A stretch of 61,425 bases of DNA from Thermoplasmata archaeon (GCA_003942085.1 DQIQ01000005.1:1-61425); one strand, 5' to 3'. Positions 16,911 through 44,644 are shown, counted from the first letter of the stretch. The notes: generated from the letters alone by a model not told the origin. Numbers and translations are program-made.

Positions 16911-16927
16911 CAGTCCAGCGTAATTGT

Positions 16928-17302: not shown

Positions 17303-17321
17303 TTTCCCTCACTTTACTTAA

Positions 17322-17337
17322 GTAATGTTAATGTAAT
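17322..17337 (-). promoter_or_regulatory. Two ATTAC boxes (GTAAT on +) 11 bp apart upstream of receiver gene
   Basis: GTAAT at 17322 and 17333. Confidence 0.55.
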
Positions 17338-17371
17338 GTTTTTTTTAATAGTTTCCGTTCATGTTCTATGT

Positions 17372-20329: not shown

Positions 20330-20388
20330 TTTTTCACATTTCCGTTTAGTTCATTTATTCTTTTTTTCAATTCTTCAAATTTCCTCAT
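20326..20388 (-). CDS. 20-aa mini-ORF MRKFEELKKRINELNGNVKN, a copy of the CHASE4 protein tail
   Basis: Hand translation; ATG 1 nt after the upstream TAA; TGA overlaps the downstream TTG start. Confidence 0.5.
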   Translation of the reverse strand: MRKFEELKKRINELNGNVKN

Positions 20389-20389
20389 T

Positions 20390-25664: not shown

Positions 25665-25795
25665 TGGCCAGCTCCGCAGCATATTTATAAAAAAATCCTA
25701 TCGGTACGGCAACAGTGATGTAGCTATCAACAAATATATGCATTAGTGCATCATCCTTCACCTAGACCCTCCTAGCGAGTCCGTTTAGATGTAAC

Positions 25796-28305: not shown

Positions 28306-28863
28306 TTATATTTTCACAATCCGATCACATAGTTGAGCAATTTCTGCATAGATATATTTGTCTGCTTCACCTTTCAGAGAGACAAGCAGACCATTGACCT
28401 CATCAATCCTCATTTTAGTCAAAATCCCGTGTATGAACTGAGCAAAAACCTCAGGTTTGTTATGAATAAGCATGCTATTAATAGTGTCAATAAAAACAAA
28501 TTTATCCCCCGGGATTCTCTGTGTACTCTCTGTTATTGCGATAGAAATATTTGTCAGATCAGATACTGATTCAAGATATAAAACATTGTCAGCCTCTTCA
28601 AGATTCATACTCTGACTTTTTGAGATACAGTCAAGAATGAGAATTTTTTTTATATCGATGTTGTTTTGTTGATAGAGTTGCACTAAATTCTTTTGAGGTC
28701 TGCTTGCCAGCACGATAATTCCAATGTATTTTTTTTCGGCGGATAAATATTTTATTGTCGACAAAGAAACCTCTAACATCTTCTCTGCAGAAGTTTCTAG
28801 CATCACAATCCAACCTTTTGGTAGATTGTTCAGTTCTTTAGAAATTTTTTCGATATCATTCAT
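28306..28863 (-). CDS. Inactive KaiC/RecA-fold protein
   Basis: RP, ILDCIS, FVFIDTINSMLIHN; no Walker A; start overlaps upstream stop. Confidence 0.75.
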   Translation of the reverse strand: MNDIEKISKELNNLPKGWIVMLETSAEKMLEVSLSTIKYLSAEKKYIGIIVLASRPQKNLVQLYQQNNIDIKKILILDCISKSQSMNLEEADNVLYLESVSDLTNISIAITESTQRIPGDKFVFIDTINSMLIHNKPEVFAQFIHGILTKMRIDEVNGLLVSLKGEADKYIYAEIAQLCDRIVKI

Positions 28864-29443
28864 TTTCTTCAACACTTATGACATGGTCAACATGAAAGGC
28901 TACATTTCTGATGAATTTTTTTTGAACAAGGTCCTTTGCTACATTAAAAACGAGGAGAACTTTTTCCTCGTTTTCTTTCCGTACAGTTTCCATTAAGAAC
29001 TCAGAAAATCTCATGATTTCTGATAAGGGTTTATACAGAGCCATTGTAGTTAAGGAATCAATAAAGATGAACTTTTTTTGGGTTTTTAATTTTGGTAAAG
29101 ACTGATAGATAGCTTTTACCAATTCATCAATATCCAGTTCCTGCGAAATATGAACACAACGAGCATCAACATTTTGCTGCCTACCAGAAAGCGCAGAAGC
29201 AGCATCGATAAATAAAAGGTTATTTACATCTATCCCCTCGGATTCGAAAAAGGAAGAAACATTTTTAAAAGGTCTCTGAAAGCTAATATATATTCCTTGA
29301 AAACCTTGATTCATCAATAGTTTAATCGTAGAAGAATTCACTTCAAAATAAGCATTTATCGGAAGCTCAATCATGATTATAGCGCCATGTTTGTCCATCT
29401 GTATCGCTTGTTCAATAGATTTTGTTGTTTCATCTTTTAACAT
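28856..29443 (-). CDS. Inactive KaiC/RecA-fold protein
   Basis: GIYISFQRP, FIDAAS, FIFIDSLTTMALY; no Walker A. Confidence 0.75.
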   Translation of the reverse strand: MLKDETTKSIEQAIQMDKHGAIIMIELPINAYFEVNSSTIKLLMNQGFQGIYISFQRPFKNVSSFFESEGIDVNNLLFIDAASALSGRQQNVDARCVHISQELDIDELVKAIYQSLPKLKTQKKFIFIDSLTTMALYKPLSEIMRFSEFLMETVRKENEEKVLLVFNVAKDLVQKKFIRNVAFHVDHVISVEENE

Positions 29444-29464: not shown

Positions 29465-32400
29465 TTATTTAATTTCTTCAGTGTCCTCATCTTGTTTTAA
29501 TCCAAATAAGTCTACGTCTCTAAATTTTGTTTGGATATTATCAACTGGTTTTATTGGTAATGTAAATCTAAAAATACTTCCTTTACCATCTTTGCTTTCC
29601 ACCCACATCTTACCACCATGAACGGTGACGATACTACGGGATAGCGCAAGCCCAATACCACCTCCGGAGTATTCTCTACTCTTGCCTTCATCAGATCGAT
29701 AAAACGCATTAAAAATTTTTTTCTGTTTATCCTTTGATATACCTTTTCCCGAGTCTTGAATTTCGAACAATATATCAGTTTCTTGTTTTTTTACGCGCAG
29801 AATAACCGTAGATTTATCCGGCGAGAATTTTATTGCATTTTCAAGAATATTTAGAATAACTTGTTTTATCCTCTCTGGGTCAACGATTAAATCCGGTATT
29901 TCATCCTCCATTTCAACATTGATTGCTATGTTTTTTACTTTTACAGATGGTTGCATTTTTTCGACTGCTTGGTTCACTATCGTTCCAACAATCGTTTTTT
30001 TCGGAGTAAAAATCATTTCTCCTGCTTCGATATGTGAAATATCTAAAAGACCAGACACAAGGTCGTCAAGACGATTTGCATTCCGTAACATTATCTCAAG
30101 ATATTTTTTTTGCTCATCGGTTATTTCACCAACGAGTTGATTTGACAACATCTGCGTATACGCTTTTATTGTCGTCAACGGAGATCTTATTTCGCGTGTA
30201 GTAACATCTAAAAAATCTGATTTTATTTGATTGAGTTTTTCCAGTTGAATGTTTTGGTGTTTGATTTTTTCTTCCCCCTGCTTATGCTCAAGCCATAGAC
30301 CAAGGGCTTTTGCAATGCTGTTGAGCATGTTCTGCTCTTCAGGGATCCAGAAGAGCTTGTCTTCGACGTAGTAGACCCACAACTGCCCACGGGCTTCACC
30401 CCTCACAATAATCTCTGCATGGAGACTGTACAACAACCCCTCGGTGAACATCTCGGAGGTAAATCGTCTACCATCCAGTTCAATAACGGGTACGGTGATC
30501 TCTGGGAACTGCATGGCTGACTTCAAGTGCTCGATAGTTCGCTGGCAAAGCTCATCCACGGACAGGTTTTCTTTCATGTCGCTGTTCACTGCGTAGATAC
30601 AGGTCTGCTCCTTCATCCTTTCCCGCAGTGCTGTCTCAATTTTCTTGCGCTCGGTGATCTCTCGTGCGACGCCTTGAATAAGATATGGTTTATTATCTTT
30701 GTAAATAACAGAAGCCTGCGTCTCTACAATAATAGTCTCTCCATCTTTCCTTCGTAGTTTGTATTCTGAGATCATTTTTTGAGAACCGGTTTTTTTAAGT
30801 TCAGAAGTAGTTTCATATGTTTTTCGTAGTTCATCTTCATTCAGGATTAAAGATGCAAAATTCAGTTTTACAACTTCATCTTTTGTGTAACCAAACATGT
30901 GGAGAGCTGCAGGGTTTGCATCAATGAAGTTACCCTGAAAATCATGGATATAGATGGCATCCATTGAACGGTCATAAAGGGCGAGATATCGGTCTTTACT
31001 TTCTTTAAATCTCTGCTCTGCAAAGTCGCGTTGAATAACACGAGCGACAGTGTTACTGATTTCATCCAGCATGGTTTCTTCAACAGGTATTATAGGATGT
31101 TTTGAAAAAAGGGCTAGAACACCTAACGGTTCTTCGTTGGAAAAACGAATCTGATATCCTACAAACGATACAAGTCCTAGTTCACGCGCCCATTCGTTGT
31201 TGTGAATACGTGAATCATTCTGTACATCATTTGTGATAAATTTGTGTTCTTCTCCTGACGCGATACGTCCGATCTTGTAGCAGCCCAATGGGACACGATG
31301 GTGGATTTTACCATCAGTATGGGTGTAGCGACCAGAGCTTGCCAGTAAATGCAGACACCGGTCGCGGTAACGACAGACGTGCGGTCCTTCATGCACTTCA
31401 GCATGGATGCATCCCTGGTCACAAAGATCTCCTGATTGGACAAGCCAAATTCTGCAGAAATCAGCGTCGAAGAGATGAACGACTTCATCGGTTATCATTT
31501 TAAGTTTGTCTTCAAATGCTCCTGGTAGAAGAAGAGACTGTTGAAGTATGTTAACACCTTGTTGCCACAGAAGCATTTTCTCACGTTCCGTCTCAACCTG
31601 TTTTTGTTCGGTAATATCTCTGACGGTAGCTTGTAAGAATCGTCGTCCTTTGATTTCCATTCTATTCAACAGAACGGTCGTTGAAAAACTAGTGCCATCT
31701 AAACGCTTGTGTATCCACTCGAAAAAGTGGGAACCTTCGCGCATAGCTGTTTCAATCATCTCTTTAGCCTTCTCTGCAGAAGTGCGTCCATCTGGTTGGT
31801 ACTCGGGAGATAAATCCCCAGGTCCACAGGAAATGAATTCCTCTACGTTCCTCGCCTTAAACATTTTTACTGTCGCCGGGTTTCCGGTTGTGAAATTCCA
31901 GGATGGAGGTTCAAGAAACATCATAGCATCTCGGGAGCTATCAAAAAGAACTCGATGACGTTCTTCGCTCTCCTTTAATATATCTTCTGCATGCTTGCGT
32001 TCGGTGATATCACGAATGATTCCGACCGCGTGCAATTGACCACGTATTTGAACTGGTGACACCGATAGATCCAGAGGAAATTTAGTCCCATCTTTTCGTA
32101 ATCCCTCCATCTCGATTGTTTTATTCAGTCCTGGTCCTTCACCAGTCTTCTGGAAATGGATGAACCCTTTCATAAATGCGTCGAGGTACTGATTGGGAAC
32201 TAGTATCGTATGGAAGTTCTTTCCAGATATCTCTTCAGTTGAATACCCAAAGATTCTTTTCGCAGATTCATTCCAAAATGAAACACATCCTTGCGAATCT
32301 ATCATGATGATTGCATCAAGAGCTGCACTACTAATTCTACGGAATTTCTCTTCGCTTTCCTGCAAGGCATTTTCCGCTGTTTCTTTCTGTTTTATGATTT

Positions 32401-34003
32401 CCTTAAGCTCCTTGCTTTCTTTCTCAAGTTCAGCAATTTTTTTACTCACGCCGGTGGTTACTCCCTCATAACCTTCGAGACTTTTACCGACAACGATACC
32501 TTTATCGGTGATGTCATATAATCGAAGATTTTTACTATGTTCACTGCCCCTCATTTTGATAACGTTTATGACAGATTGTACATTACCTTGCATTTCAACA
32601 TATCGTAACAAGATAATATTATCTGATATTGTGGAAAGATTTGAATCAACATCTTTTGAATTGCTTATGAGCGAAGTTGTGGCTGATGTAAATAATGGGG
32701 TTACCTCACGAGTTTTCAAATATCCGTTCAATCGTTTTGAAAAACTCATAAATTCTTCTACTGAGAAAGCATTTGAAATGGCAGATAAAGGATCGACAAC
32801 GCATCGTCTGATTTTTTTTCCTTCCACTATTTGTTTTATTTCTGCCAGATGCTCTTCAAGATGCTTTTCGTTTGGATAAATGCATCGCATTATAAGAAGA
32901 CCTTCTCGTTCGTACTGTTCAAAATCCCATCCAAAGTTTTTAGCGTTTCTTAGCACTTGTTTCTTGCTTTCTTCGAATCCAGCATACAGACAGATCTCCC
33001 CGTTTTTCAATCCATCGGCAATGAAACTTAAACCTAACGTAGATTTTCCCGTACCAGGTGAACCTGTTATGAGAGTGGAGGAACCGACAAAAATTCCACC
33101 ACCTAACATTTCGTCCAATGCAGAAATTCCAATCGATATACGGTCTGTTGAAGAAAAATGTTCAAGAGGGACTCTGAGTTTAGGAAAAACGTTAATGCCA
33201 TCTTTTGAAATTTTGAATTGGATGTCATCTGATCTGAAATTTCTGCCTCTGACTTTGATAATCTGTATTATTCTTTGTGGTTCATCTTTTACTTTAATCT
33301 GATCAAATCGTAAAATAGCATCGGATATAAATTCCTCAACTTCGTACTTAGAATATTTATTCATTTCAGCAATTTCACTGATTAAAATAGTTGTACAGCC
33401 GAGTGTTGCTAGTGTTGTGCCTAAAGCAAAAATAAATGCTCTGATTTTAGCCCGGTCATCGATCTGATACGCAATCGCGGTAATTGAATCAATGCATACT
33501 CGTTTCGCATTTGTTCGTTTGACCTCTTCTCCAATAAAATCGAGAATTTTTCGCTGATCAAAACCTTCTTTCCCGTAGATCTCCCGCAGGTCAATGATTC
33601 TCAGCTTTTCATTTTCTACTGCATCTTTATTGTAATAACTCAATTTTTCAAGGTTTTCTAAGGTTTTAAAAAGTGGCTCGGTCAGCGTTATGTAAATTCC
33701 ATTTTCGTTGTGCTTAATTCCTTCAAAGAGCCACTGGAAAGAAAAAATAGTTTTACCACTCCCTGATGAACCAGCGAGTAAAATAATTGAACCCTTGGTA
33801 AATCCACCATCAAGAAGTTCATCAAAGTCTTTTATACCAGTTATGGAAACATTGCTTGTAGGTGGACAATACGTATTAGCAGCCAAAAGAACTTGTTCAG
33901 ACGGTTTTATGGGGGATTCTTTTTCCAATAGTATTTGATCTACTTCTTGTTCAGTATTCTGGTGTTGTTGGGAAAATTTGGTTAACATTTTTTCGTTTTG
34001 CAT
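29465..34003 (-). CDS. kaiC: KaiC(CI+CII)-PAS-PAS-GAF-PAS-GAF-like-HisKA(His to Arg)-HATPase fusion
   Basis: Walker A GSSGSGKT and GSPGTGKS, VEEFISD, FEES, DSNLSTISD, KVRG/KMRG fingers; H-box reads TTREIRSP; intact N/G boxes. Confidence 0.88.
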   Translation of the reverse strand: MQNEKMLTKFSQQHQNTEQEVDQILLEKESPIKPSEQVLLAANTYCPPTSNVSITGIKDFDELLDGGFTKGSIILLAGSSGSGKTIFSFQWLFEGIKHNENGIYITLTEPLFKTLENLEKLSYYNKDAVENEKLRIIDLREIYGKEGFDQRKILDFIGEEVKRTNAKRVCIDSITAIAYQIDDRAKIRAFIFALGTTLATLGCTTILISEIAEMNKYSKYEVEEFISDAILRFDQIKVKDEPQRIIQIIKVRGRNFRSDDIQFKISKDGINVFPKLRVPLEHFSSTDRISIGISALDEMLGGGIFVGSSTLITGSPGTGKSTLGLSFIADGLKNGEICLYAGFEESKKQVLRNAKNFGWDFEQYEREGLLIMRCIYPNEKHLEEHLAEIKQIVEGKKIRRCVVDPLSAISNAFSVEEFMSFSKRLNGYLKTREVTPLFTSATTSLISNSKDVDSNLSTISDNIILLRYVEMQGNVQSVINVIKMRGSEHSKNLRLYDITDKGIVVGKSLEGYEGVTTGVSKKIAELEKESKELKEIIKQKETAENALQESEEKFRRISSAALDAIIMIDSQGCVSFWNESAKRIFGYSTEEISGKNFHTILVPNQYLDAFMKGFIHFQKTGEGPGLNKTIEMEGLRKDGTKFPLDLSVSPVQIRGQLHAVGIIRDITERKHAEDILKESEERHRVLFDSSRDAMMFLEPPSWNFTTGNPATVKMFKARNVEEFISCGPGDLSPEYQPDGRTSAEKAKEMIETAMREGSHFFEWIHKRLDGTSFSTTVLLNRMEIKGRRFLQATVRDITEQKQVETEREKMLLWQQGVNILQQSLLLPGAFEDKLKMITDEVVHLFDADFCRIWLVQSGDLCDQGCIHAEVHEGPHVCRYRDRCLHLLASSGRYTHTDGKIHHRVPLGCYKIGRIASGEEHKFITNDVQNDSRIHNNEWARELGLVSFVGYQIRFSNEEPLGVLALFSKHPIIPVEETMLDEISNTVARVIQRDFAEQRFKESKDRYLALYDRSMDAIYIHDFQGNFIDANPAALHMFGYTKDEVVKLNFASLILNEDELRKTYETTSELKKTGSQKMISEYKLRRKDGETIIVETQASVIYKDNKPYLIQGVAREITERKKIETALRERMKEQTCIYAVNSDMKENLSVDELCQRTIEHLKSAMQFPEITVPVIELDGRRFTSEMFTEGLLYSLHAEIIVRGEARGQLWVYYVEDKLFWIPEEQNMLNSIAKALGLWLEHKQGEEKIKHQNIQLEKLNQIKSDFLDVTTREIRSPLTTIKAYTQMLSNQLVGEITDEQKKYLEIMLRNANRLDDLVSGLLDISHIEAGEMIFTPKKTIVGTIVNQAVEKMQPSVKVKNIAINVEMEDEIPDLIVDPERIKQVILNILENAIKFSPDKSTVILRVKKQETDILFEIQDSGKGISKDKQKKIFNAFYRSDEGKSREYSGGGIGLALSRSIVTVHGGKMWVESKDGKGSIFRFTLPIKPVDNIQTKFRDVDLFGLKQDEDTEEIK

Positions 34004-34514: not shown

Positions 34515-36494
34515 ATGAAAAACGAACCTGAAATTATAAAAATACTACGTAAAGAAGAAATTCTGAAAAAAAAAAGGAAAAAAAATCAGGGATTAGATTT
34601 ATCCACACCGTCAACAGAAATTTTCCGTGATAAAACCACTGAAATAGGAAAAGACCTGCCAGATAGTCCAGTCGCTCGTAATCCTGATTTAAAAATTAGG
34701 TCTGTTCTTGAGCAACATTTAGAAAATATTTTTGAAATAAAAACAACCGATGCGGATAGAAATCAGTCAGAAAATCAAGAGTTTCACACCAGGTTAATAG
34801 AGGACAATGACAATGAAATGGTCCAGAAAAAATCATCTGATCTTTCAATAGCACCACAAGGAAACAAGACTTTGGAAGAACCAGAAACGATTCAAATACC
34901 ACACTTGGAAAAAAAATATGAAGAGACAATAGATCCTAACAAAAAAACTCTCCAACAAAAGACAAACCACCCTGAAAAACAGACTACTGAAGAAACAATA
35001 CAACAGAGCCGAGAGCAAGAGGAACGAACAGGTTTTGGGTGGAAGGGTCTCGGAAGCCGAATCATTAAGTTTGATGAAAAAACAAGAACCCACATCTATG
35101 AGGTACATGAGCCTTTACTGGATGAAAATGAAAAGAAGATAAAAAACAGACTCATTGCACTGTTTGAATTACGCACCACCATTGATACGTTTAATAGCAG
35201 CACAACAGAAAAAATAACCATGCTGAATGAAGCATTAGAAAAGATTATCATTGATAACCATATTAAACTAAACGAGATATCAAAGGATAAAATTTTTTAC
35301 TATATTTTTCAAGAGTTCATAGGATACGGCAAAGTCGACATCTTGATGCATGATGAAGGGATTGAGGATATCTCCTGCGACGGCCCCAACATCCCTATCT
35401 TTATTTATCATAAAACACATGAATCGATTAGAAGCAACATCGTCTATGAAAACCCTGATGAGCTGGATTCCTTTGCCGTGAAACTGGCTCAGATCTGCGG
35501 CAAACAAATATCGATTTATGAGCCAATTGTCGATGGGAAACTTGCGGATGGGTCCCGGTTATCGGTCATGCTTGCAAAAACCGTGACACCATTTTCGACA
35601 TTTACCATTCGGAGATTCCGCACCGATCCTTTTACCCCCATCGATCTGATCAATTCTGGCACGATGTCCCTAGAGATGGCCGCGTATTTCTGGCTCGCGA
35701 TTGAAAACGGCGCATCCATCCTCTTCTGCGGAGGGACCGCCTCTGGAAAAACATCGACATTGAATGCCTTTGCACTCTTTTTACCAGCAGCATATAAGAT
35801 TTTTTCCATTGAGGACACTCGAGAGGTCATGCTCCCTCATGAGAACTGGGTCGCAGGGACCACAAGAACTGGTTTTTCGCAGTCTGTAGAACATAAAACA
35901 AGCAAAGATATTGATATGTTTGATCTTACAAGAGCAGCTCTGCGCCAGCGCCCCCAAGTCGTCATTGTCGGTGAGATACGGGGTCAGGAAGCCTATGCTC
36001 TTTTCCAGGCGATGGCAACTGGTCATATCTCTTACTCAACCATTCATGCAAGTGATATTCACACCTTGGTTCAAAGACTGGAAAACCCCCCGATATCCTT
36101 ACCAAAAGCACTGTTGACCTCCCTTAATCTGGTCGTGTTTTTAAAATCCACGGTGATAAATGGTCAACCTGCGCGAAGAATCACCAATGTCATCGAAATA
36201 ATAAAAATGGATGCCAGTACCAATAAACTAATTTTTACTGCCCCTTTTTCATGGGTTTCAGAGACAGAGGACCGCTTTAAAAGGGAAGCAAAAAGCATAT
36301 TACTTGATAGAACTAAAAACAAGAGAGGATGGAGTGATGAACAGCTTGTTTCAGAGCTGAGAAACAGGATCATTGTACTGGAATGGATGAGGAAAAACAA
36401 CATACGATCTTTTAGAGATGTTGGGAAGATTGTCGCACAATATAGCGAAGAATCTGATGCCGTTCTTGCAAAGGCAAAAGGAGCTTCTATATGA
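34515..36494 (+). CDS. Type IV pilus/archaellum-type assembly ATPase (PilB/ArlI/TadA-like) with long N-terminal extension
   Basis: EDISCDG, FTIRRF, GGTASGKT, IEDTRE, LRQRP..IVGEIRG, TGH...TIHA. Confidence 0.93.
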   Translation: MKNEPEIIKILRKEEILKKKRKKNQGLDLSTPSTEIFRDKTTEIGKDLPDSPVARNPDLKIRSVLEQHLENIFEIKTTDADRNQSENQEFHTRLIEDNDNEMVQKKSSDLSIAPQGNKTLEEPETIQIPHLEKKYEETIDPNKKTLQQKTNHPEKQTTEETIQQSREQEERTGFGWKGLGSRIIKFDEKTRTHIYEVHEPLLDENEKKIKNRLIALFELRTTIDTFNSSTTEKITMLNEALEKIIIDNHIKLNEISKDKIFYYIFQEFIGYGKVDILMHDEGIEDISCDGPNIPIFIYHKTHESIRSNIVYENPDELDSFAVKLAQICGKQISIYEPIVDGKLADGSRLSVMLAKTVTPFSTFTIRRFRTDPFTPIDLINSGTMSLEMAAYFWLAIENGASILFCGGTASGKTSTLNAFALFLPAAYKIFSIEDTREVMLPHENWVAGTTRTGFSQSVEHKTSKDIDMFDLTRAALRQRPQVVIVGEIRGQEAYALFQAMATGHISYSTIHASDIHTLVQRLENPPISLPKALLTSLNLVVFLKSTVINGQPARRITNVIEIIKMDASTNKLIFTAPFSWVSETEDRFKREAKSILLDRTKNKRGWSDEQLVSELRNRIIVLEWMRKNNIRSFRDVGKIVAQYSEESDAVLAKAKGASI

Positions 36495-38254
36495 AATCTA
36501 CAAGATATTCACAGTACTGTTCAGGGATATTTGACAGGTTTTTTTCAATAAAAACAAAACAGAAGTTCGAGGAAAAAAACATTACCTTAAAACAAGCCAA
36601 CATCAACATGATGTATCAGGAATACTCCTCGATGTTTTTAATGACCTTTATCCTAGGATTTATTATCACTACGGTCACTGCCCTCTTGCTTTTTGTGTTA
36701 TTCCCATCTCTTACTACACTTTTACTCGCAGTCCTTTTACCGCTGTGCATACCACTTGGCATATGGGGAGTGTGTCTATTCATCCCACATTCCGCCATTA
36801 AAAGAAGAGGAGCCAATATTGACAGGTTTCTACCATATGCGGTGAACTTTATCAGCACCATGGCGATTGCAGGCGTCTCACCTGCAGATATCTTCCGCTC
36901 ATTCGCAGCAATCGACGTCTACGGGGAAGTACAGACCGAAGCAAAAAAAATCATCAAAGAACTCGACATCATGGGTGTTGATACGATCACTGCGTTAAAA
37001 CACGCCATCGAAAAAACCCCTTCAAAAAAATTCAAATCGTTCCTCCAAGGGATAATTGGTGCTCTTCAATCAGGCAGTGATCTTCACATCTACCTTTCCA
37101 ACATCGTCGATCAGTACATGGCAGATGAATTTTTATCACGAAAGAAAAGTCTCGATACCCTTGGCATTCTCGCAGAAACATTTGTCACCACGCTCATTGC
37201 ATTTCCGATATTTCTCGTCATCATTATTTCCGTGATGGGGTTTATGAACGGTGACTCAAATTTCACAGTACAAATCTTATACATTTTTTCATTCATTGTT
37301 CTGCCAGTCGCCTATGGTGGGTATTACTTCCTCATAAAATCAACAAGTATAGAGGAGATTCGAAACCCAGAGGGGAAGAAAAAAAAAATTTCTCTGAAAG
37401 AGTATTACATAAAAAACAAACCATATGTTTTAATCCTACTTCTCTCCACAGCTGTTCTCCTTTCTTTTTACAGTGTTATTTTTATATTGAGTTATTATAA
37501 ATACATGATTTTTACGACCTATTTATTTTTTGATATTTTTTTCATCTCTGTGCTGGTTATCATAGGACCCTTTACGTTCTACTCTCATAAACAAGCGCAA
37601 AAACAGCGAGAAATCGAGAAAAGACTACCTGATTTTGTAATTGAACTGGGGAACTGTATCTCCGCTGGGATGACGGTCTTTGATGCAATTTCTATAGCTG
37701 CGAAAGGCCGCTATGGGAAATTAACCCCGGAAATACTAAAAATGAAAGCTGAACTCTCGTGGCATATACCGGTGACAAAGGTTTTTGATAATTTTGCATA
37801 CCGGATGAAATCAGCCATCGTCAAAAGAATAATCGTCTCGATAAATACCGGGCTAAAAATGGGAGGTATGACATCAAAAGTTTTTATGGCAGCAGCTAAA
37901 GAAATCAATCAAATTAATAATATCGAAGATCAGAGAAAATCAGAGATGTCGACGTACACCGCTGTCATCCTGGTGAGTTTTTTTGTGTTCCTAGGAATAA
38001 TAATGATCCTTAATTTAACGTTGTTTAAGTCATTTTTCTCAAACCAAAAAAATACGGTAAAAATGATTGGTATGATGATTAGCAATATGAATCCTAAGGC
38101 ATTAGAGTATGCGTTGTCTTCGTTTACGTTTGTTCAAGGTCTTGGCGCAGGACTCATAGCGGGATTTATGATGGATGGGAAGCTTTCTTCCGGACTTCGG
38201 TATAGCTTTGTTCTTGGCATTATTTCGCTTTTTGTGTTTAAATTTTTATTTTGA
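36491..38254 (+). CDS. Type IV pilus membrane platform protein (TadC/ArlJ-like, two T2SSF domains)
   Basis: IDRFLPYA...YGEV, TPSKKF and IEKRLPDF...YGKL halves; many TMs; coupled to the ATPase. Confidence 0.9.
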   Translation: MKSTRYSQYCSGIFDRFFSIKTKQKFEEKNITLKQANINMMYQEYSSMFLMTFILGFIITTVTALLLFVLFPSLTTLLLAVLLPLCIPLGIWGVCLFIPHSAIKRRGANIDRFLPYAVNFISTMAIAGVSPADIFRSFAAIDVYGEVQTEAKKIIKELDIMGVDTITALKHAIEKTPSKKFKSFLQGIIGALQSGSDLHIYLSNIVDQYMADEFLSRKKSLDTLGILAETFVTTLIAFPIFLVIIISVMGFMNGDSNFTVQILYIFSFIVLPVAYGGYYFLIKSTSIEEIRNPEGKKKKISLKEYYIKNKPYVLILLLSTAVLLSFYSVIFILSYYKYMIFTTYLFFDIFFISVLVIIGPFTFYSHKQAQKQREIEKRLPDFVIELGNCISAGMTVFDAISIAAKGRYGKLTPEILKMKAELSWHIPVTKVFDNFAYRMKSAIVKRIIVSINTGLKMGGMTSKVFMAAAKEINQINNIEDQRKSEMSTYTAVILVSFFVFLGIIMILNLTLFKSFFSNQKNTVKMIGMMISNMNPKALEYALSSFTFVQGLGAGLIAGFMMDGKLSSGLRYSFVLGIISLFVFKFLF

Positions 38255-38264
38255 AGATAGCGTG

Positions 38265-38711
38265 ATGGATTTGAAAAGAGAAGGGAAAAAAAAAGATGAG
38301 GCGGTTTCAGATGTCCTTGGAGCGGTCCTCATGCTCAGTATGGCGGTAGCACTTTTCGCTATTGTGTATATTGTGGTGATGTCCTTTCCGTTTCATTCAT
38401 CTGCACCTCGAGTGGATATTGTTGGAACGATACAGGGAAATACTATTGTTCTAGAACATCTCGGTGGTGAATCAATATCTGCTACTTCGAAGGTTTCTGT
38501 TGTGATAAATAGTACACAACATAGTCTAAATGTCAGTCAATATCTCGTTGATTCCAATGGGAATAAACTGTGGGATATGGGTGAACGACTGGTTTATCCA
38601 TCTGGAAATATAACAAATCTTCGGGTTGTAGCTACCGTAATCGACATGGGGAGCAATTCCATAGTGATGACGGGAGTTCTACAGGAGGGGAAAGCAATTG
38701 CAACACCTTGA
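38265..38711 (+). CDS. Archaeal type IV pilin (class III signal peptide)
   Basis: KKKDEA/VSDVLGAVLMLSMAV; HLGGESI; WDMGE. Confidence 0.85.
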   Translation: MDLKREGKKKDEAVSDVLGAVLMLSMAVALFAIVYIVVMSFPFHSSAPRVDIVGTIQGNTIVLEHLGGESISATSKVSVVINSTQHSLNVSQYLVDSNGNKLWDMGERLVYPSGNITNLRVVATVIDMGSNSIVMTGVLQEGKAIATP

Positions 38712-39024
38712 TGGTACTGCTCTTGATACTACTGAGATTACTGGTTCTTCAGCAATATTATGGTTGATTTATAAATTCATAAACTACGCAGGATCTAACC
38801 GGTTCACCTATAAACTTTCTGGAGACAGTTGGACAAATATCGCTTGGTGCCCCAAGTCAGGTTCAAGCTCTTACAATCAGAGCATTAGCGGTTTATTTCA
38901 GGGCATAGTTTATAATTTTAAGGCTCAGCTTCCTCAGGATTCTACTTCGATTGAGGGTGAAGTCAAGGTAAAAAAAAATGGAGAGAAAGAAAAGAAATCA
39001 CTTGCAATCAATAGCCTCAAATGA
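38698..39024 (+). pseudogene. Out-of-frame FN3-like segment, probably the frameshifted C-terminal domain of the preceding pilin
   Basis: +1 frame overlapping the pilin stop reads TTEITGSSAILW...FTYK...W...SISGLFQGIVYNFKAQL; only a TTG start. Confidence 0.45.
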
Positions 39025-42000
39025 AGCGGTTTCAGAGGTTCTTGGAGCCATTCTTATGCTCGCTATAGCGGTAGCACTTTTTGCTCTTGTGTATATTATT
39101 GTGATGGCCTATCCGTTTAATTCTTCTCCACCTCGAGTGGATATTGTTGGGACGATACAGGGAAATACTATCGTACTGGAGCATCGCGGTGGTGAATCAA
39201 TATCTGCTTCTTCGAAGGTTTCTGTAGTGGTAAATGGTTCAGAGTATAGTCTAAAGGTAAGCGAATATCTTGTTGATACCAATAGGAATAACCGGTGGGA
39301 TGTGGGTGAACAACTGATTTATTATCCATCAGTGGACATCAAGGGTCTGCGTGTTGAAGCCACCGTTGTCGATGTAAATACCAATTCTATTGTAATGATG
39401 GAGATTATTCAGCAGGGTGGTGATACTCAGATTCCGCTCGAGACCACAGTAAATCCTATCAGCCCCTATGATCAACCGTCACCGTCTCTTTCTCTTACAG
39501 CATCTGGTGATTTTCGTCTCAATAATGTAACACTGTTTTATCGTTGGAGCAATGATAACAGTAGCTGGAATGGAGGATTACATGTAATATATGACAGTGT
39601 TGACAGCAACTCCAGTAATATGGATGGCAGCACTGATAAAGGAGTAGAAACCAACTTCGCCAACGCACAAGGAATAACCAAAGATGGCAACTCCATGACA
39701 ATCCAAGAAACAGACACAGCAGGCCAAGACCATAAAACAGCAATCACAGGAAACACCTGCAACGTCGACAGCAGCCCAGACAAAGGAACAGAAACCAACT
39801 TTGTAAATGCACAAGGGACTTCCCGTGACACGAATAACATGGTAATTACTGAGGTAACCTCTGGTTTACCTGCAGTTAATGAGCATTTGTATGTTGATTC
39901 ATTCACCGCCACGACGACAGGTTGGACGAACACGGGGACAACACCTTATCTTAGTGCTATTGATGGCACGAACTATATCCAAACAAGTACGAACGGTCGG
40001 GTTGGTCGATGGTTCACATTTACAAACACTGCATCAACTGGAAACATTCTAACGGTTGCCCTCAGCATCTACGTCACTGCCGGTGATGGGGACGATGATG
40101 TCACCTGGAGTATTGATACGAATGGGGACAACACTGCTGAGTACACAGGGACAATCAATAATCCCGTTGGGTCCAATTGGTATAGCACAGGGACAATCGC
40201 TGGTCTCACCACAAGTGCTCTGGTGAACAGCTCACGGGCTTCATTCACATATGTCAGGAGTCTACCAGCAAACATCATTAGGATTGATTGTGCCCAGTTG
40301 AATGTCACCCGTACATCCACAATAAACTACCAGATAGACTTCGAATACAACTGGACAAAAGCCAACAACAGCGACACAACCGAATATCTGTGTTTCTATG
40401 TAACATCACACACAGGCTCTGAAACCCTGAACATCAACTACAGAAACGGAACAACCTGGACAAACCTAGGAACAATCACAACAACAGGATGGAAAAACAT
40501 AACAGCCACAGGCCTAACCAGCAAAACCTACACCATACAAATAATCGGAACAACAGAAACAAGCGACACCACCCAAGACACCTGGAACATCGACTGCATC
40601 TTCCTACACTCATACAACACATCCAACTACCAAATCGACATCGAATACCAATGGATAGCAATCAATTATACACAAGTAAATAAACAAGTGTGTTTCTATA
40701 TTACATCTCATACCGGAACTGAGAACCTGCTGGTAAATTATTGGACTGGATCTGCATGGTCATTACTGGGAACAATAACCAGTACAGGTTGGTCGAATTT
40801 TACTGCGACAGGCCTTTCATCATCGCCCTATACCATCCAATTGAAAGGTGTAACAGAATCAAGTGACATAGTGAAGGATACTTGGAATATCGATGTGATA
40901 ATGCTTCGCACATGGAATGGTGGGATATGGTATGATGCTAATTGGGCGTATAGAAAGAAGATTAATATTACTGGTCAAATTGGAGCTGGACCTAACTATC
41001 AAGTACTTTTGAATATCGGAGAAACATCTGGTGCTTCAGGGGTTAATTTTAATTTGGGTGGACATTCATCAAACTTTCCTACCGGGAAAAATACAGGGGG
41101 AGACTTGGGGTTTACTAATAAAAGTGATACAGTCCCCCTTGATTTCTGGGTAGAAGATATATCCGGGATAGCCCCAAACAGAGTTGCAAAGGTATGGGTG
41201 GAAGTAAAAGATAGCTTGGATAGCAGTTCCACCATTTATTGCTATTACGGCAATCCATCTGCTACAAACGCTAGTAATGGAACTAACACCTTTAATTTCT
41301 TTGATAACTTTGATGATAATTCTATCGATGTGAACAAATGGACTACATACCAAGGTACTTGGAGTGAGACGGGTAGGGTGATGAAACAAACATCCACAGC
41401 GACCGGTGACCCTAAGAAATGTATTGCAAAATCAGCCTCCCAATCTGATTATTACGCAATTAGAGCAAAAGTGAGACCAGATTCTGGAACAAGCAGTGAT
41501 GCGAGAGCGGGCTTAAGTATTAAAACTGACCTGAGTAATGGTCAAGGTCTCAACTATGTTTTTCATGATTTCAATGCAAAGACAACAGACCAATTCTTAG
41601 ATGACTTACGAACATGGGGAACATCGTATTCTCGAGCTGTATGGTCATTTGGAACATGGTATTGGTTTGAAATCTATCATGATGGAACAAATGTTAACGG
41701 AAGAATCTGGGATATTAATAGTACACCAGGTGGTTTTCATTCGTGGGCAAGAGGTGGAAGGTCAGGTTATCCTGCTCTTAATGGAGGAAGCATGGGAGAA
41801 ACTGCTTCTTTTGATGATGTCTTTGTTAGAAAATGCATTGAAAATGAGCCATCCTACAGTTCAGCTGGAAATGAAGAAACACTCAGTATAAATAATGGAG
41901 AAGGGCATAATTGGAGTATTTATACAGGTGATATTAATCCTGACTCAAATAGCCCCTGGCTTTGGTCTTTTGATTTTCCAAATAATATCGGGTATTATGA

Positions 42001-42076
42001 ATTTTACAGTAGAGGGATGTATAATGGTGTGGCAGAGACCGCACCAATTAATGCTGATGCAAGCTGTAAAAATTAG
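38978..42076 (+). CDS. Large pilin-like adhesin (pilin N-domain, internal repeats, DUF2341-like and lectin-like domains)
   Basis: NEA/VSEVLGAILML; duplicated DKG.ETNF.NAQG and NYQID.EY.W...DTWNID modules; W.YRKKI...LDFWVE...YYGNP. Confidence 0.85.
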   Translation: MERKKRNHLQSIASNEAVSEVLGAILMLAIAVALFALVYIIVMAYPFNSSPPRVDIVGTIQGNTIVLEHRGGESISASSKVSVVVNGSEYSLKVSEYLVDTNRNNRWDVGEQLIYYPSVDIKGLRVEATVVDVNTNSIVMMEIIQQGGDTQIPLETTVNPISPYDQPSPSLSLTASGDFRLNNVTLFYRWSNDNSSWNGGLHVIYDSVDSNSSNMDGSTDKGVETNFANAQGITKDGNSMTIQETDTAGQDHKTAITGNTCNVDSSPDKGTETNFVNAQGTSRDTNNMVITEVTSGLPAVNEHLYVDSFTATTTGWTNTGTTPYLSAIDGTNYIQTSTNGRVGRWFTFTNTASTGNILTVALSIYVTAGDGDDDVTWSIDTNGDNTAEYTGTINNPVGSNWYSTGTIAGLTTSALVNSSRASFTYVRSLPANIIRIDCAQLNVTRTSTINYQIDFEYNWTKANNSDTTEYLCFYVTSHTGSETLNINYRNGTTWTNLGTITTTGWKNITATGLTSKTYTIQIIGTTETSDTTQDTWNIDCIFLHSYNTSNYQIDIEYQWIAINYTQVNKQVCFYITSHTGTENLLVNYWTGSAWSLLGTITSTGWSNFTATGLSSSPYTIQLKGVTESSDIVKDTWNIDVIMLRTWNGGIWYDANWAYRKKINITGQIGAGPNYQVLLNIGETSGASGVNFNLGGHSSNFPTGKNTGGDLGFTNKSDTVPLDFWVEDISGIAPNRVAKVWVEVKDSLDSSSTIYCYYGNPSATNASNGTNTFNFFDNFDDNSIDVNKWTTYQGTWSETGRVMKQTSTATGDPKKCIAKSASQSDYYAIRAKVRPDSGTSSDARAGLSIKTDLSNGQGLNYVFHDFNAKTTDQFLDDLRTWGTSYSRAVWSFGTWYWFEIYHDGTNVNGRIWDINSTPGGFHSWARGGRSGYPALNGGSMGETASFDDVFVRKCIENEPSYSSAGNEETLSINNGEGHNWSIYTGDINPDSNSPWLWSFDFPNNIGYYEFYSRGMYNGVAETAPINADASCKN

Positions 42077-42090
42077 TAAGAGGATTTGAA

Positions 42091-42933
42091 ATGAACGTGA
42101 ATCAGATAAAAAACTCAAATGACGCAGTCGCAGGTGTCGTTGTCGCAATTTTACTGCTCGGATTATTTGTCACCGTCCTTGGCGTTATACAAACCATGTA
42201 TGTGCCAAAATGGATGAAGCAAATAGAATCAGAGCACATGGATGAAGTTGCAGGGCAGTTTGCCCAGTTGAAATATGCGATAGATACGCAATCTACTATT
42301 CAAAAAAAAGGCACAATAGCTACATCAATTACTCTTGGAAGCAGTGAACTGCCTTTCCTTCCTTCAAGCAAGGCATTCGGTTCTCTATTTATTTTATCAG
42401 ATGAATGCAATGTGACAGTTACTAGCAGTATTGATCCAACATTTCATTGTTCCCTGGGAACCATAAAATATTCATCAAAAAACTCATATTTTCTTGATAA
42501 ATCATATATTTTTGAGGCAGGAGCATTGATAGCGAGTCAATCTGAAGGAAATATTATGCTCATACGACCTTTTTCCGTGACGAACGAAAACGGTCTTATT
42601 AGCGCATCTTTCAGCATTACAAATATCTCTGGTGAGGGTGGAAAAACCTCTGCAGGTGGATATGGGGTTTATCCGATACAGACAGAATATTTAAGCAATA
42701 AAACCACAATTTTACACGGTGTTACAAGTATCACAATTACCTCGGACTACCCTAACGCGTGGCACAAAGCTTTTAACAGTACTTTAGTAGAATCAGCAGG
42801 GTTAATTTATAGTCATCATTTTTTAATATCTAACAACAGTAACGAGGTAACTATAACATTCATCGGGGTAACTGTAAATCTCACCATAGCCGTTACTAAA
42901 ATCGACGCCCAGATAGCGATCGGATGGATTTAA
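42091..42933 (+). CDS. Minor pilin-like protein
   Basis: NDA/VAGVVVAILLLG...QTMYVPKW...E.EHM; class III-like signal. Confidence 0.8.
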   Translation: MNVNQIKNSNDAVAGVVVAILLLGLFVTVLGVIQTMYVPKWMKQIESEHMDEVAGQFAQLKYAIDTQSTIQKKGTIATSITLGSSELPFLPSSKAFGSLFILSDECNVTVTSSIDPTFHCSLGTIKYSSKNSYFLDKSYIFEAGALIASQSEGNIMLIRPFSVTNENGLISASFSITNISGEGGKTSAGGYGVYPIQTEYLSNKTTILHGVTSITITSDYPNAWHKAFNSTLVESAGLIYSHHFLISNNSNEVTITFIGVTVNLTIAVTKIDAQIAIGWI

Positions 42934-43017: not shown

Positions 43018-43938
43018 TTATTTGGTCCCCAATCCACCAAATACCTCCTGTTTTGGATATACGATCATGCCTTTATCAGAAATTTTCATCGCAACGATTC
43101 TTTCTTGATGTTTTGTCCCCCGCATCTTCAACACTTCAATAGCCCGCTGTCTCATCCCCTCCCGCTTGATATGATAAATCACGATCACCCCGTCAGCAAG
43201 GAATTCTTCAACACCTGTTTGAGAAAAGGTTTCAGGCATCTGTCCGGTCTCGGTGATAAAAAAATTTGTGCTGCCCATATTTTCAAAAAACCTGAATAAC
43301 CGCTCAGCATAGAACCGATACGAACCGTCTTTTCCCATGAACGCTGAAGCTATCGCGGTGAGTGAATCAACAATGACAAAATCAGGTTTATAGTCTTCCT
43401 CCAGGGTGATCGGTTCCAGCTGTAACAGCTGGCTGTCCTCCTCCTTTGAAAACATCGCATCAACGCTACCTCGTTCAGATAAATAATGAATGTCACTAGG
43501 GAGATACCTTTTGATTTTTAGGTTGCCTGTCTCAAGAAGTTTTTCAGGATCCCAACTAAAATCCTTCATATGTTCCATCAATCTTTTTTCAGATTCTTCA
43601 AAGCTCATGTAGAAACATTTTTTACCATGTAAGATATGATATTGAAGCATCTGCAAACAAAAAATGGTTTTCCCGGAACCTGCACCCCCAGCTACCAGGA
43701 CATTAGAGCCTCGGGGTATGCCGTTTTCAAAGAGCTCATCAAATCCCGGTATCCCTGTTATTACATATTTTTTCGTATCGTTTACTTCTTTTAAGTCTTC
43801 AACAGTACGTTGTGTTTTTGATTCTAACGTCTGGCCATCTTGTTTTTTACTTTCACCGTCCCCTAATTTTTTTTCTATTATTGATTTGATTTTTGACATA
43901 TCGAAAATAGTATCCTGTTCGCTCTCCTTTTTTGTCAT
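43018..43938 (-). CDS. Single-domain KaiC/RAD55-like ATPase
   Basis: TGIPGFD, GGAGSGKT, SFEE, IVDSL, VEEFLADG, KMRG. Confidence 0.92.
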   Translation of the reverse strand: MTKKESEQDTIFDMSKIKSIIEKKLGDGESKKQDGQTLESKTQRTVEDLKEVNDTKKYVITGIPGFDELFENGIPRGSNVLVAGGAGSGKTIFCLQMLQYHILHGKKCFYMSFEESEKRLMEHMKDFSWDPEKLLETGNLKIKRYLPSDIHYLSERGSVDAMFSKEEDSQLLQLEPITLEEDYKPDFVIVDSLTAIASAFMGKDGSYRFYAERLFRFFENMGSTNFFITETGQMPETFSQTGVEEFLADGVIVIYHIKREGMRQRAIEVLKMRGTKHQERIVAMKISDKGMIVYPKQEVFGGLGTK

Positions 43939-44266: not shown

Positions 44267-44644
44267 TTATTTCTCCAGCATCCTGTCGATCCGTCTCATC
44301 AAATCATCGATATCATAGGGCTTCAGGATATAATCCAATATATCCAACTCTTTGAGCATTTGTTTCCCATAGCCGCCAAACGCAGCGACCGTTAAAAAAG
44401 CAAGTTTAAGATTCTTCAACTGTGCATCGTTCCGTATGCTTTCACACACTTCTCTGCCGCTCATCTCAGGCATGAACATGTCGACCAGGACCAAATCTGG
44501 TTTTTTTTCCAAATTTTTAAGAATTTTAAGGGCTTCTTTCCCATTGGCTGCTCCCACGACATTATAATCATGGGACCGAAGTAGAATAGTGAGCATCTCT
44601 CGCAAATCGGGTTCATCATCAATAACCATCACGGTCTTTACCAT
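44267..44644 (-). CDS. Stand-alone receiver (REC) protein
   Basis: VIDDE, DMFMPEMSG, FLT, ILKPY. Confidence 0.92.
   Translation of the reverse strand: MVKTVMVIDDEPDLREMLTILLRSHDYNVVGAANGKEALKILKNLEKKPDLVLVDMFMPEMSGREVCESIRNDAQLKNLKLAFLTVAAFGGYGKQMLKELDILDYILKPYDIDDLMRRIDRMLEK

Follow-up and report, generated by a model that had tools for sequence, protein, structure and literature searches.

A putative sensor-gated KaiC joined to a PAS/GAF array and a histidine pseudokinase module in a wetland archaeon

The fusion gene, its neighbors, and its family

The window analyzed here, a stretch of 61,425 nucleotides from an uncultured wetland archaeon of the Thermoplasmatota, carries on its minus strand a gene in which a double-domain KaiC is continued by a linker, sensor domains, and a histidine kinase (HK)-like module. 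The main genes of the locus are as follows.

29465..34003, minus strand: whole fusion gene, 1512 aa, ATG start; CI-CII-linker-PAS-PAS-GAF-PAS-(unassigned)-HisKA (acceptor histidine lost)-HATPase_c
28856..29443, minus strand: iK1, 195 aa, KaiC/ArlH fold without Walker A, first conserved downstream gene
28306..28875, minus strand: iK2, 189 aa, iK1 paralogue without Walker A, second conserved downstream gene, overlapping the end of iK1
34515..42933, plus strand: archaeal type IV pilus genes, oriented divergently to the fusion gene (T2SSE ATPase, T2SSF platform, pilins, DUF7289)
43018..43938, minus strand: single-domain KaiC, 306 aa (E 1.7e-159 to L001 12320-13267)
44267..44644, minus strand: stand-alone REC protein, the nearest response regulator, 10 kb from the fusion

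The single 1512-residue ORF proposed in an earlier sequence-only reading of this DNA was confirmed on the minus strand. The KaiC-PAS junction, whose coverage by reads had been named as a check, is no assembly artifact: contigs from three other wetland samples (runs of other samples and studies) span it with 0 to 1 differences (X4, 32077-32890; X5, 32331-33075; X6, 32144-32462) and the same fusion was seen again in independent assemblies.

By its gene content, the fusion gene is the first of a conserved KaiC-hub cassette with two P-loop-less KaiC-fold partners and, in many cases, a one-domain KaiC. iK1 matches PF06745 weakly, at the cut-off, and its AlphaFold2 model (pLDDT, 87.7) has FlaH (4yds), PH0321, and KaiC as top Foldseek matches. 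The order KaiC-iK1-iK2 recurs in Thermoplasmatota and DPANN (of 23 loci, 12 have both iK genes and 16 have one or both), and in relatives an orthologue of the single-domain KaiC directly follows iK2. The cassette adjoins pilus genes in the window and in L001/L017, L016, L022, and L027; in the window, these genes and the one-domain KaiC are arranged differently than in the relatives.

Counted as clusters at 90% identity within a length band of 831 to 2646 aa, the fusion family comprises 26 protein clusters from Thermoplasmatota MAGs. The 31 KaiCs with a C-terminal extension all fall into a single clade (SH-aLRT, 95), nested among stand-alone DPANN KaiCs and kept across several genera, while none of the 44 other rows of the tree exceeds 653 aa. 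This phylogeny, which the earlier reading had proposed as a check, indicates a single origin for the rare fusion clade. Nor did the architecture prove common and already characterized: it is rare, with 26 clusters in that length band, and in the literature searched we found no published description of a double-domain KaiC combining an S-T pair with a PAS array and a pseudo-HK. PAS arrays without an HK module (KaiC-linker-PAS) make up 12 of the 26 clusters, including complete PAS-only ORFs in L022 and L027 that are directly followed by iK1; this argues that the C-terminal chain is an input to KaiC, not an output.

The KaiC module and the question of a clock

By its tandem RecA-like domains and the Walker A P-loop that each contains, the N-terminal part is assigned to the double-domain KaiC family; its match to PF06745 (E 1.4e-99) falls in two stretches, residues 55-275 and the second domain.

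33179..33841, minus strand: KaiC CI domain, residues 55-275 (PF06745, KaiC structure alignment, motif table)
33749-33772, minus strand: CI Walker A GSSGSGKT, residues 78-85
33677-33682, minus strand: CI T108-E109, opposite KaiC E77-E78 (alignment to KaiC structures)
32480..33145, minus strand: KaiC CII domain, residues ~287-508 (Pfam, KaiC structure alignment, motif table)
33041-33064, minus strand: CII Walker A GSPGTGKS, residues 314-321
32969-32974, minus strand: CII catalytic E344-E345, counterpart of KaiC E318/E319
32630..32635, minus strand: S457/T458, opposite KaiC S431/T432 (phmmer alignment to Thermosynechococcus elongatus KaiC 7dy1_A, ...ESHI/STITD)

Pfam and the motif positions agree on complete CI and CII domains with both Walker A motifs, as had been read before, and the phosphosite assignment made at that time also stands: DSNLSTISDN is the translation of 32618-32647 on the minus strand, which places S457/T458 at nt 32630-32635, aligned exactly with S431/T432 of 7dy1_A. 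S457 is invariant in 11 of 11 relatives and nearly invariant among 19 aligned relatives, and the Arg/Lys fingers (K250/R252 and K483/R485) are invariant across a 28-sequence alignment. Five residues ahead of S457, V452 occupies the position of KaiC T426. In CI, a T-E-P motif typical of the whole archaeal subfamily means that one of the two catalytic glutamates is gone, and the CI ATPase may therefore differ from that of KaiC.

Cyanobacterial KaiC (7dy1 and Synechococcus elongatus 1u9i) likewise has double RecA-like domains with two Walker A motifs, a Glu-Glu pair in CII, Arg/Lys fingers, and the S-T pair. In contrast, the fusion protein has Thr-Glu for Glu-Glu in CI, Val at the T426 position, and ~990 extra C-terminal residues, and it fails the circadian model TIGR02655 (circ_KaiC), scoring 334.5 bits, below the cut-off of 546.25; it narrowly passes the broader PRK09302 (417.9 versus 408). 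The region of the CI KaiB-binding loop (B-loop) is 3 to 4 residues shorter than in all five aligned KaiC structures, while the long B-loop is kept in the canonical KaiC of relative L016. The search for kaiB that the earlier reading had suggested returned nothing: KaiB (PF07689) and KaiA (PF07688) have 0 matches each in a genome that is 82.9% complete, so that their absence is provisional. kaiB occurs in one of five fusion-bearing relatives, a same-genus genome in which it forms, with a different, canonical KaiC, a kaiBC pair adjoining the cassette. The best PDB match is the resurrected ancestral KaiC-beta 8zn5 (E 3e-101; T. elongatus 7dy1, E 3e-93), and KaiC-beta does not oscillate in vitro according to an excerpt of PMC12081879.

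The S-T pair itself is common in non-clock double-domain KaiC homologues in our alignment. Together with the circ_KaiC score, the CI Thr-Glu, the short B-loop, and the lack of KaiB/KaiA matches, this leaves the label "clock-type" that the protein had been given unsupported; by sequence criteria, no feature singles it out as a circadian oscillator.

The sensor array and the histidine-less kinase module

The remaining part of the protein contains the following features.

32348..32449, minus strand: helical, heptad-patterned linker, residues ~519-552, from the CII C terminus to the first PAS domain, conserved in all fusion proteins
32000..32347, minus strand: PAS domain 1, residues 553-668 (Pfam)
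31574..31978, minus strand: PAS-like domain 2, residues ~676-810 (TIGR00229; cross-matches PAS domains of this protein and of relatives)
31031..31510, minus strand: GAF domain, residues 832-991 (Pfam)
30665..30991, minus strand: PAS domain 3, residues 1005-1113 (Pfam)
30254..30643, minus strand: segment 1121-1250, no Pfam match and no cross-match in relatives
30020..30223, minus strand: HisKA (DHp), residues 1261-1328 (Pfam, 54.6 bits, above cut-off)
30194-30196, minus strand: Arg1270, codon CGC, at the phospho-acceptor His position (HK853 alignment, DNA read)
29549..29881, minus strand: HATPase_c (CA), residues 1375-1485 (Pfam, 102 bits, above cut-off)

The best heptad register of the linker places hydrophobic residues at 9 of 13 a/d positions. 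In relative P0124, where the linker joins KaiC directly to the HK-like module, AlphaFold2 proposes a single helix (529-593), with pLDDT <50 in the linker. TIGR00229 matches the protein in 3 stretches, and segment 1121-1250 is possibly a small GAF-like module.

The "kinase core" recognized earlier does have HisKA and HATPase_c domains above the Pfam cut-offs, but it lacks the acceptor histidine. The H box reads TTREIRSPL where HK853 has SHELRTPL, and the Arg1270 codon is invariant across 4 sequencing runs. Arg in place of the acceptor His rules out canonical autophosphorylation and His-Asp transfer. None of the 17 distinct KaiC-fused HK modules retains this histidine, as opposed to all 78 free HKs from the same searches; R or Q occupies the position in every fused module, and relative P0003 has a DHp entirely devoid of His. 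The ATP-binding motifs are gone from most fused relatives: the N-box Asn is retained in 6/17 fused modules (78/78 free HKs), G1 in 5/17 (77/78), and G2 in 6/17 (74/78). They are kept in the window protein, whose CA boxes are intact (N, ENAIKF; G1, DSGKG; F, IFNAFYR; G2, GGGIGL), so a catalytic role for its CA domain is possible. dN/dS is 0.19 to 0.26 for the HK-like module and 0.07 to 0.08 for the KaiC module, which indicates purifying selection on the former. We regard the module as a histidine pseudokinase, with an HK fold and a non-His acceptor position under selection.

These data bear on how the C-terminal chain could work. In the sequence-only reading, sensors act through an oscillator-like KaiC on a functional histidine kinase in the same chain, so that the protein would be a covalent KaiC-SasA. 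The domain order, Pfam and NCBIfam matches above cut-off, and the aligned S/T pair speak for such an arrangement, and the available part of bioRxiv 10.1101/2022.01.26.477890 describes bacterial KaiC-HK partnerships. It is nonetheless highly improbable and already contradicted by the sequence: the acceptor His is missing from 17/17 distinct fused modules with no conserved alternative His, the HK module is absent altogether from 12/26 clusters, no KaiB or KaiA was matched in the 82.9%-complete genome, circ_KaiC stays below its cut-off, and the B-loop is shortened. What survives of that proposal is the covalent joining of a complete double-domain KaiC, S/T pair included, to sensors and an HK-like module, in one protein and across a covered junction; the clock label is unsupported, and the output kinase lacks its acceptor His.

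The CA domain could instead still be an active ATP-dependent kinase with a non-His substrate (Ser/Thr on KaiC, iK1/iK2, or another protein), which would make it a true output with new chemistry; kinases of the GHKL fold that phosphorylate Ser offer a comparison. The N, G1, F, and G2 motifs are kept not only in the window protein but also in the deep-branching P0014, P0023, and P0024, the acceptor flanks T-T-R-E-I-R-S-P-L are strongly conserved, and the dN/dS of the module is consistent with this idea. However, the N-box Asn, G1, or G2 is gone in 11 to 12 of the 17 distinct modules fused to KaiC, and catalysis is therefore dispensable for the family, 12 of whose 26 clusters lack the module wholly. 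We consider this alternative unlikely.

Alternatively, the DHp/CA module might be a DivL-like reverse sensor, through which a phosphorylated stand-alone receiver would act on the helix and then on KaiC, or a CikA-like, KaiC-controlled receiver phosphatase. The PDB matches of the module include DivL (4q20), the Glu following the acceptor position is kept (R-E-I-R-S), and stand-alone REC genes lie 10 kb from the fusion in the window and close to it in L007, L010, and L028; Pfam finds no REC domain in the fusion protein itself. Yet no receiver gene consistently adjoins the fusion, and acceptor+4 is Ser or Gln, whereas the phosphatase motif has Thr/Asn there; P0024 carries Q-Q at the acceptor position and at +1. 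We consider the receiver-linked reading rather unlikely.

Finally, the C-terminal chain could be functionless debris of a chance gene fusion. The decay of catalytic motifs, sensor arrays that vary highly between close relatives, and a relative (P0015) apparently frameshifted past its PAS domains would fit such an origin, but long ORFs are intact in 26 clusters, the HK-like module has the dN/dS given above, the linker is conserved, as are the H-box flanks, and the single-origin clade is maintained in several genera. This explanation is hardly credible.

A proposed sensor-controlled KaiC switch and known systems for comparison

A KaiC with phosphosites, joined to sensors and to a His-less kinase-like tail, looks like a sensor-controlled KaiC switch rather than a clock with a working kinase. 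We therefore favor, as reasonably probable, a sensor-gated KaiC signaling ATPase that bears no mark of a circadian oscillator and is not a working histidine kinase. The KaiC part would be hexameric and would autophosphorylate S457/T458. A symmetry mismatch between the KaiC hexamer and the HisKA dimer, raised in the sequence-only reading, can fairly be inferred; the C-terminal helices may pair as coiled coils, forming three dimers per hexamer or connecting two hexamers in the manner of Rhodobacter KaiC. The sensor domains would occupy the site at which KaiC is acted on by KaiA or by the Rhodobacter coiled coil; by shifting the CII C-terminal helices, they would set the CII kinase/phosphatase balance. 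Domain order and the PAS-only relatives suggest that the signal runs from the sensors to KaiC. The His-less module would serve as a dimerizing clamp or docking module, not as a phosphodonor, and the output would pass through partner proteins instead of His-Asp phosphotransfer, with iK1, iK2, and the one-domain KaiC reading the KaiC state. Judging from the gene neighborhood alone, this readout probably controls the adjacent type IV pilus system.

Several known systems can be compared with the fusion. SasA and CikA have a histidine-kinase fold, as the fusion does, and an activity that depends on the KaiC state; SasA docks via a KaiB-like domain, and CikA dephosphorylates RpaA. Unlike the fusion, which has no KaiB-like domain, both stand as proteins of their own and have a functional His. 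DivL of Caulobacter, with Tyr at its acceptor position, likewise combines a HisKA/HATPase_c fold and a non-His acceptor with PAS domains ahead of them, but it is bacterial and not joined to an ATPase ring. A portion of PMC4211667 presents DivL as a pseudokinase sensing a response regulator, and the clock output roles of SasA and CikA, including that of CikA on RpaA, are outlined in the introduction of bioRxiv 10.1101/2022.01.26.477890.

According to part of PMC10076222, KaiC of Rhodobacter sphaeroides has a C-terminal coiled coil with allosteric coupling to the phosphosites. This KaiC (8dba), a distant relative (214 bits, versus 343 for 8zn5), resembles the fusion in having no KaiA and in a CII C terminus that continues as a helix, whereas in the fusion the helix is followed by PAS/GAF and HK-like domains, and the search for a KaiB partner gave no match. 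In Pseudomonas, a KaiC is coupled physically and functionally, in a non-circadian role, to a neighboring PAS-HK whose PAS domain it binds (bioRxiv 10.1101/2022.01.26.477890, in the sections available), and in this coupling it resembles the fusion; as described in that work, KaiC and its partner are distinct proteins and the partner is a histidine kinase, while here one polypeptide lacks the acceptor His.

Among archaea, the KaiC-like ArlH and CirA have links to the archaellum, CirA as a repressor of motility (excerpt of PMC10983859); "KaiC hubs" and inactivated iKaiC go back to Makarova et al. 2017, as cited in a passage of PMC5847659. The P-loop-less paralogues, the adjoining type IV filament genes, and the predicted FlaH-like fold of iK1 point to a likeness with this signaling (ArlH/FlaH, CirA, KaiC hubs), although ArlH and CirA are single-domain proteins and the fusion is double-domain. 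As read here, the fusion would represent a previously undescribed form of KaiC-hub signaling.

The KaiC-sensor fusion and its relatives

The fusion gene is one uninterrupted reading frame that joins two KaiC domains, sensor domains and a histidine-kinase fold, and in this the sequence-only reading was correct.

Fusion gene and its domains (Pfam)
34003 to 29465, minus strand: fusion reading frame, ATG start, no interruption, 1512 aa
N-terminal part: two KaiC domains (E 1.4e-99)
Residues 553-668: PAS
Residues 832-991: GAF
Residues 1005-1113: PAS
Residues 1261-1328: HisKA
Residues 1375-1485: HATPase_c

The NCBIfam PAS model marks three PAS stretches, and residues 676-810 cross-match PAS domains. 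The CII-linker-PAS junction is covered, with 0 to 1 differences, by contigs of three runs (X4, 32077-32890; X5, 32331-33075; X6, 32144-32462) whose samples and studies differ from those of the probable source run, itself represented by a contig covering 29300-33775; all four runs are labelled wetland metagenome. Since three independent samples span it, the KaiC-PAS fusion is not an assembly artefact.

Residues 50-530 were searched by word index against 5.8 billion protein clusters (831-2646 aa, E ≤ 1e-20). The 26 clusters returned form a single family, 14 with HisKA and HATPase_c and 12 with PAS arrays only; the search reaches relatives that share 5-residue words, and more distant KaiC-histidine kinase fusions could exist. 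The same break appeared when 1.84 billion representatives were searched exhaustively with HMMER: at ≥53% identity and with at least 492 query residues aligned, each of the eight representatives is 818-1503 aa long; three shorter rows at such identities (242, 450 and 600 aa) match only in part, and the stand-alone KaiCs that come next at full length have 541-600 aa. A search of the ESM Atlas with residues 280-700 returned generic PAS clusters alone.

In a quick IQ-TREE search (LG+G4, SH-aLRT support only) of 75 of the 142 distinct KaiC modules, the 67 others being more distant representatives, the 31 proteins with a C-terminal extension all group in a single clade (SH-aLRT 95) amid stand-alone DPANN archaeal KaiCs, the other 44 rows measuring at most 653 aa. 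This clade comprises a subclade of 15 rows (support 100) that bears the kinase-like module throughout and one of 16 rows (support 99) that is PAS-only apart from P0023 and P0024. Sensor arrays vary widely among close relatives; in the 818-aa member P0124, the linker leads directly from KaiC to the kinase-like module without PAS, resembling a clean loss of the whole array between two ESEEK-type linker motifs. In another member, P0015 (848 aa), the sequence beyond the PAS domains is unrelated, as it might be after a frameshift. Named fusion records are Thermoplasmatota or Thermoplasmatales MAGs, with one labelled Methanobacteriota, and of the 197 species genomes in the class to which the window belongs, 13 have a match at E ≤ 1e-60, among them 3 of the 22 in its genus, the window's own genome counted.

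The stand-alone DPANN KaiCs (loci L018, L020, L021, L023, L026, L029, L031, L033-L035 and L037) have a conserved C-terminal tail of 60-130 residues, in which a helix precedes a small domain containing a FIGP-like motif; the tail lies exactly where the fusion clade turns to coiled coil and PAS, and the one tail scanned, that of L018, gave no credible Pfam match. Other double-domain KaiCs (P0151, P0219, P0243 and P0171/P0197/P0260) have additions of other kinds: an independent single PAS at the C terminus, a domain of the solute-binding-protein type, a receiver at the N terminus or a third KaiC domain.

The 2017 mBio work of Makarova, Galperin and Koonin on KaiC hubs may already picture KaiC-PAS-histidine kinase architectures. 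We found no description of a KaiC-histidine kinase fusion in the literature searched; it could be listed in that survey or in the supplementary tables of PMC5847659, which are indicated to list archaeal histidine kinase architectures in a paper that cites the KaiC-hub work. The fusion of KaiC, with its Ser/Thr pair, to sensors is genuine, rare and, within the literature searched, uncharacterised.

Relation of the KaiC module to clock KaiC

The motif DSNLSTISDN is the translation of 32618-32647 on the minus strand, which places S457/T458 at nt 32630-32635, as read previously; in the alignment to KaiC of T. elongatus, the pair lies opposite residues 431/432 of 7dy1_A, the KaiC sites S431/T432. 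The module keeps both Walker A motifs, glutamates E344/E345 in CII and the pairs of K/R fingers; K250, R252 and K483 are invariant and R485 nearly so in a 28-sequence alignment. It appears to have every element that ATPase activity and a CII autokinase require.

The closest solved structures are all KaiCs, namely, 8zn5 (3e-101), T. elongatus 7dy1 (3e-93) and S. elongatus 1u9i (2e-91), whereas R. sphaeroides KaiC is a much weaker match (5e-62). The first of these is described as a resurrected ancestral KaiC-beta (PMC12081879). Since cyanobacterial KaiC was not picked out among the tree representatives, the relation to clock KaiC is read from PDB and NCBIfam scores and not from the tree. PRK09302 passed narrowly (417.9 versus a cut-off of 408), and the circadian equivalog TIGR02655 failed (334.5 versus 546.25). 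Where clock KaiC has E77-E78 in CI, the fusion protein has T108-E109, and its B-loop region is 3-4 residues shorter than that of KaiC in all five structure alignments. A valine stands five residues N-terminal of S457, where KaiC has T426. The window's genome (2.02-Mb MAG, 135 contigs, 82.9% complete) gave no match to the KaiB model, one of the checks proposed for the earlier reading, nor to the KaiA model, and the other KaiC-family genes examined in it are single-domain. The label "clock-type" is not supported by these comparisons, and nothing marks the fusion protein as a circadian clock.

The histidine-kinase-like module

The C-terminal module had been taken for an output kinase. When it is aligned to Thermotoga HK853 (2c2a, E 1e-40), TTREIRSPL falls opposite the H box SHELRTPL, so the acceptor histidine is replaced by Arg1270 (codon CGC, nt 30194-30196), and no variant occurs there in the four wetland runs. 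Among 21 KaiC-fused modules, this position is Arg in 20 and Gln in one; in the non-fused kinase modules that these searches also yielded, it is His in 86/86 aligned rows, and eight partial rows are gapped there. The ATP-binding boxes of the CA domain (HATPase_c) follow the same trend.

Motifs kept in fused modules and free kinases (rows with gaps at scored columns left out)
Motif: 17 distinct fused modules (duplicates removed); 78 free kinases
Acceptor His: 0; 78
N-box Asn: 6; 78
G1 DxGxG: 5; 77
G2 GxGxG: 6; 74

No alternative conserved histidine was found, and the DHp (the dimerisation and acceptor domain) of the member P0003 has no histidine at all. The kinase of the fusion protein is, judged by its motifs, a pseudokinase, and such a His-less tail cannot be expected to start a His-Asp relay. 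The fusion and the Ser/Thr pair of the sequence-only reading therefore stand, while its clock identity and its working kinase do not. The window's protein is among the few fused modules to keep N, G1, F and G2 together, and its intact CA domain may still have a catalytic role. Against two close relatives, dN/dS is 0.19-0.26 in the kinase-like module and 0.07-0.08 in the KaiC module, the former value indicating that the kinase-like module is not decaying freely.

The cassette, its neighbourhood and a possible signalling route

The fusion gene is followed by two P-loop-less KaiC-like genes, iK1 and iK2, and lies close to a type IV pilus locus and to further signalling genes.

Neighbouring genes in the window
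28856-29443, minus: iK1, directly after the fusion gene and overlapping iK2; weak KaiC similarity, no Walker A
28306-28875, minus: iK2, paralogue of iK1; weak KaiC similarity, no Walker A
34515-42933, plus: type IV pilus locus, across the fusion gene from iK1 and iK2; pilus ATPase at 34515-36494
43018-43938, minus: one-domain KaiC, likewise across the fusion gene from iK1 and iK2; orthologue of the one found after iK2 elsewhere
44267-44644, minus: stand-alone receiver
44638-45429, minus: 263-aa ORF, marginal KaiC match (E 9.5e-4), just upstream of a receiver gene and the one-domain KaiC
17372-19909, minus: kinase with two HisKA/HATPase_c pairs
16928-17302, minus: stand-alone receiver after that kinase
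16272-16910 and 15587-16261, minus: two weakly KaiC-like iK-type genes after the receiver
20779-21996, minus: CHASE4-HAMP protein
21993-25682, minus: 1229-aa protein, about seven PAS domains, no output domain
Within 19937-25682, minus: two DUF7793/SpoIIAA-like (STAS) genes
52544-55309 and 55583-58471, minus: two long ORFs under a GC-rich stretch

The AlphaFold2 model of iK1 (pLDDT 87.7) matches archaellum FlaH, PH0321 and KaiC. Thermoplasmatota records, like those of Aenigm-, Micr-, Woese-, Undin- and Altiarchaeales, have orthologues of iK1 and iK2 after the KaiC gene in unchanged order; of 23 loci, 12 hold both genes and 16 at least one, several of the others being short contigs. Four Thermoplasmatota loci continue after iK2 with a one-domain KaiC that abuts pilin genes. 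Prediction of a complex between iK1 (17-row alignment) and the KaiC module (residues 50-530; alignment of 19 rows) gave a score of 0.00 in two runs, a result neutral on binding. Genes 15587-19909 (minus) make up a second hybrid of two-component and KaiC-like genes, and a general output module in the window may consist of paired KaiC-like genes that lack the P-loop. The GC content reaches 0.49-0.52 at 52001-56000, in surroundings of about 0.38-0.40; rRNA was ruled out for this stretch, as Rfam finds one tRNA (464-546) in the whole window.

In a same-genus genome (locus L016, 681-3411), three genes stand immediately before the cassette (a second iK pair and the KaiC-histidine kinase fusion): kaiB of canonical type (110 aa, 68 bits), a canonical 513-aa KaiC that has Glu-Glu in CI and the long form of the B-loop, and a fusion protein of 223 aa with KaiB-like and V4R parts. 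No KaiB was found in the other four fusion-bearing relatives searched.

KaiA acts at the C-terminal end of CII in cyanobacterial KaiC. Because the His-less tail cannot start a relay and many members end after their PAS domains, the simplest reading would make the PAS/GAF chain an input to KaiC. This is supported by the way the chain leaves the CII C terminus, as a conserved heptad-patterned helix (about residues 519-552; 9/13 a/d positions hydrophobic in the best register); the AlphaFold2 model of P0124 likewise has a single helix, 529-593, running into DHp, although the linker is modelled with low confidence. A C-terminal coiled coil that shifts register with phosphorylation state is reported for R. 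sphaeroides KaiC (PMC10076222). Neighbouring helices, or helices of two rings, could pair, which would resolve the hexamer-versus-dimer question. The proteins iK1 and iK2 and the one-domain KaiC would read out the state of KaiC. Pseudomonas is reported to have KaiC and a PAS-histidine kinase as separate proteins that bind via the PAS domain (bioRxiv 10.1101/2022.01.26.477890), whereas the archaeal partners share one gene, which looks like such a pair fused, its kinase half having later lost catalysis. A possible role in pilus control is suggested by the gene neighbourhood together with the precedent of ArlH and CirA (PMC10983859).

A further-reaching model, which we consider improbable, is that in this clade the Ser/Thr autokinase of KaiC would replace the histidine autokinase of a two-component-type sensor. 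PAS/GAF signals would be stored as slow, hourglass-like phosphorylation on the hexameric ring instead of on the DHp histidine, and the conserved Arg and the DHp/CA scaffold would pass this state to partners by coiled-coil register shifts.

KaiC homologues are common outside cyanobacteria, and few of their functions and inputs are established. The fusion clade does not widen the range of true circadian clocks to include archaea. It places ligand and redox sensor domains in cis at the CII C terminus, the regulatory site of KaiA and of the Rhodobacter coiled coil, and therefore offers a direct test of how outside signals set the phosphorylation of KaiC when KaiA and KaiB are absent. The clade is, besides, an example of a histidine-kinase module demoted to a pseudokinase once fused to another phospho-signalling engine, and the KaiC/iKaiC cassette beside pilus genes is a concrete system for the proposed archaeal KaiC-hub signalling. 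Should the improbable model hold, the fusion protein would be a natural KaiA-free, ligand-gated KaiC and a hexamer-dimer allosteric machine that times or integrates signals for type IV pilus control.
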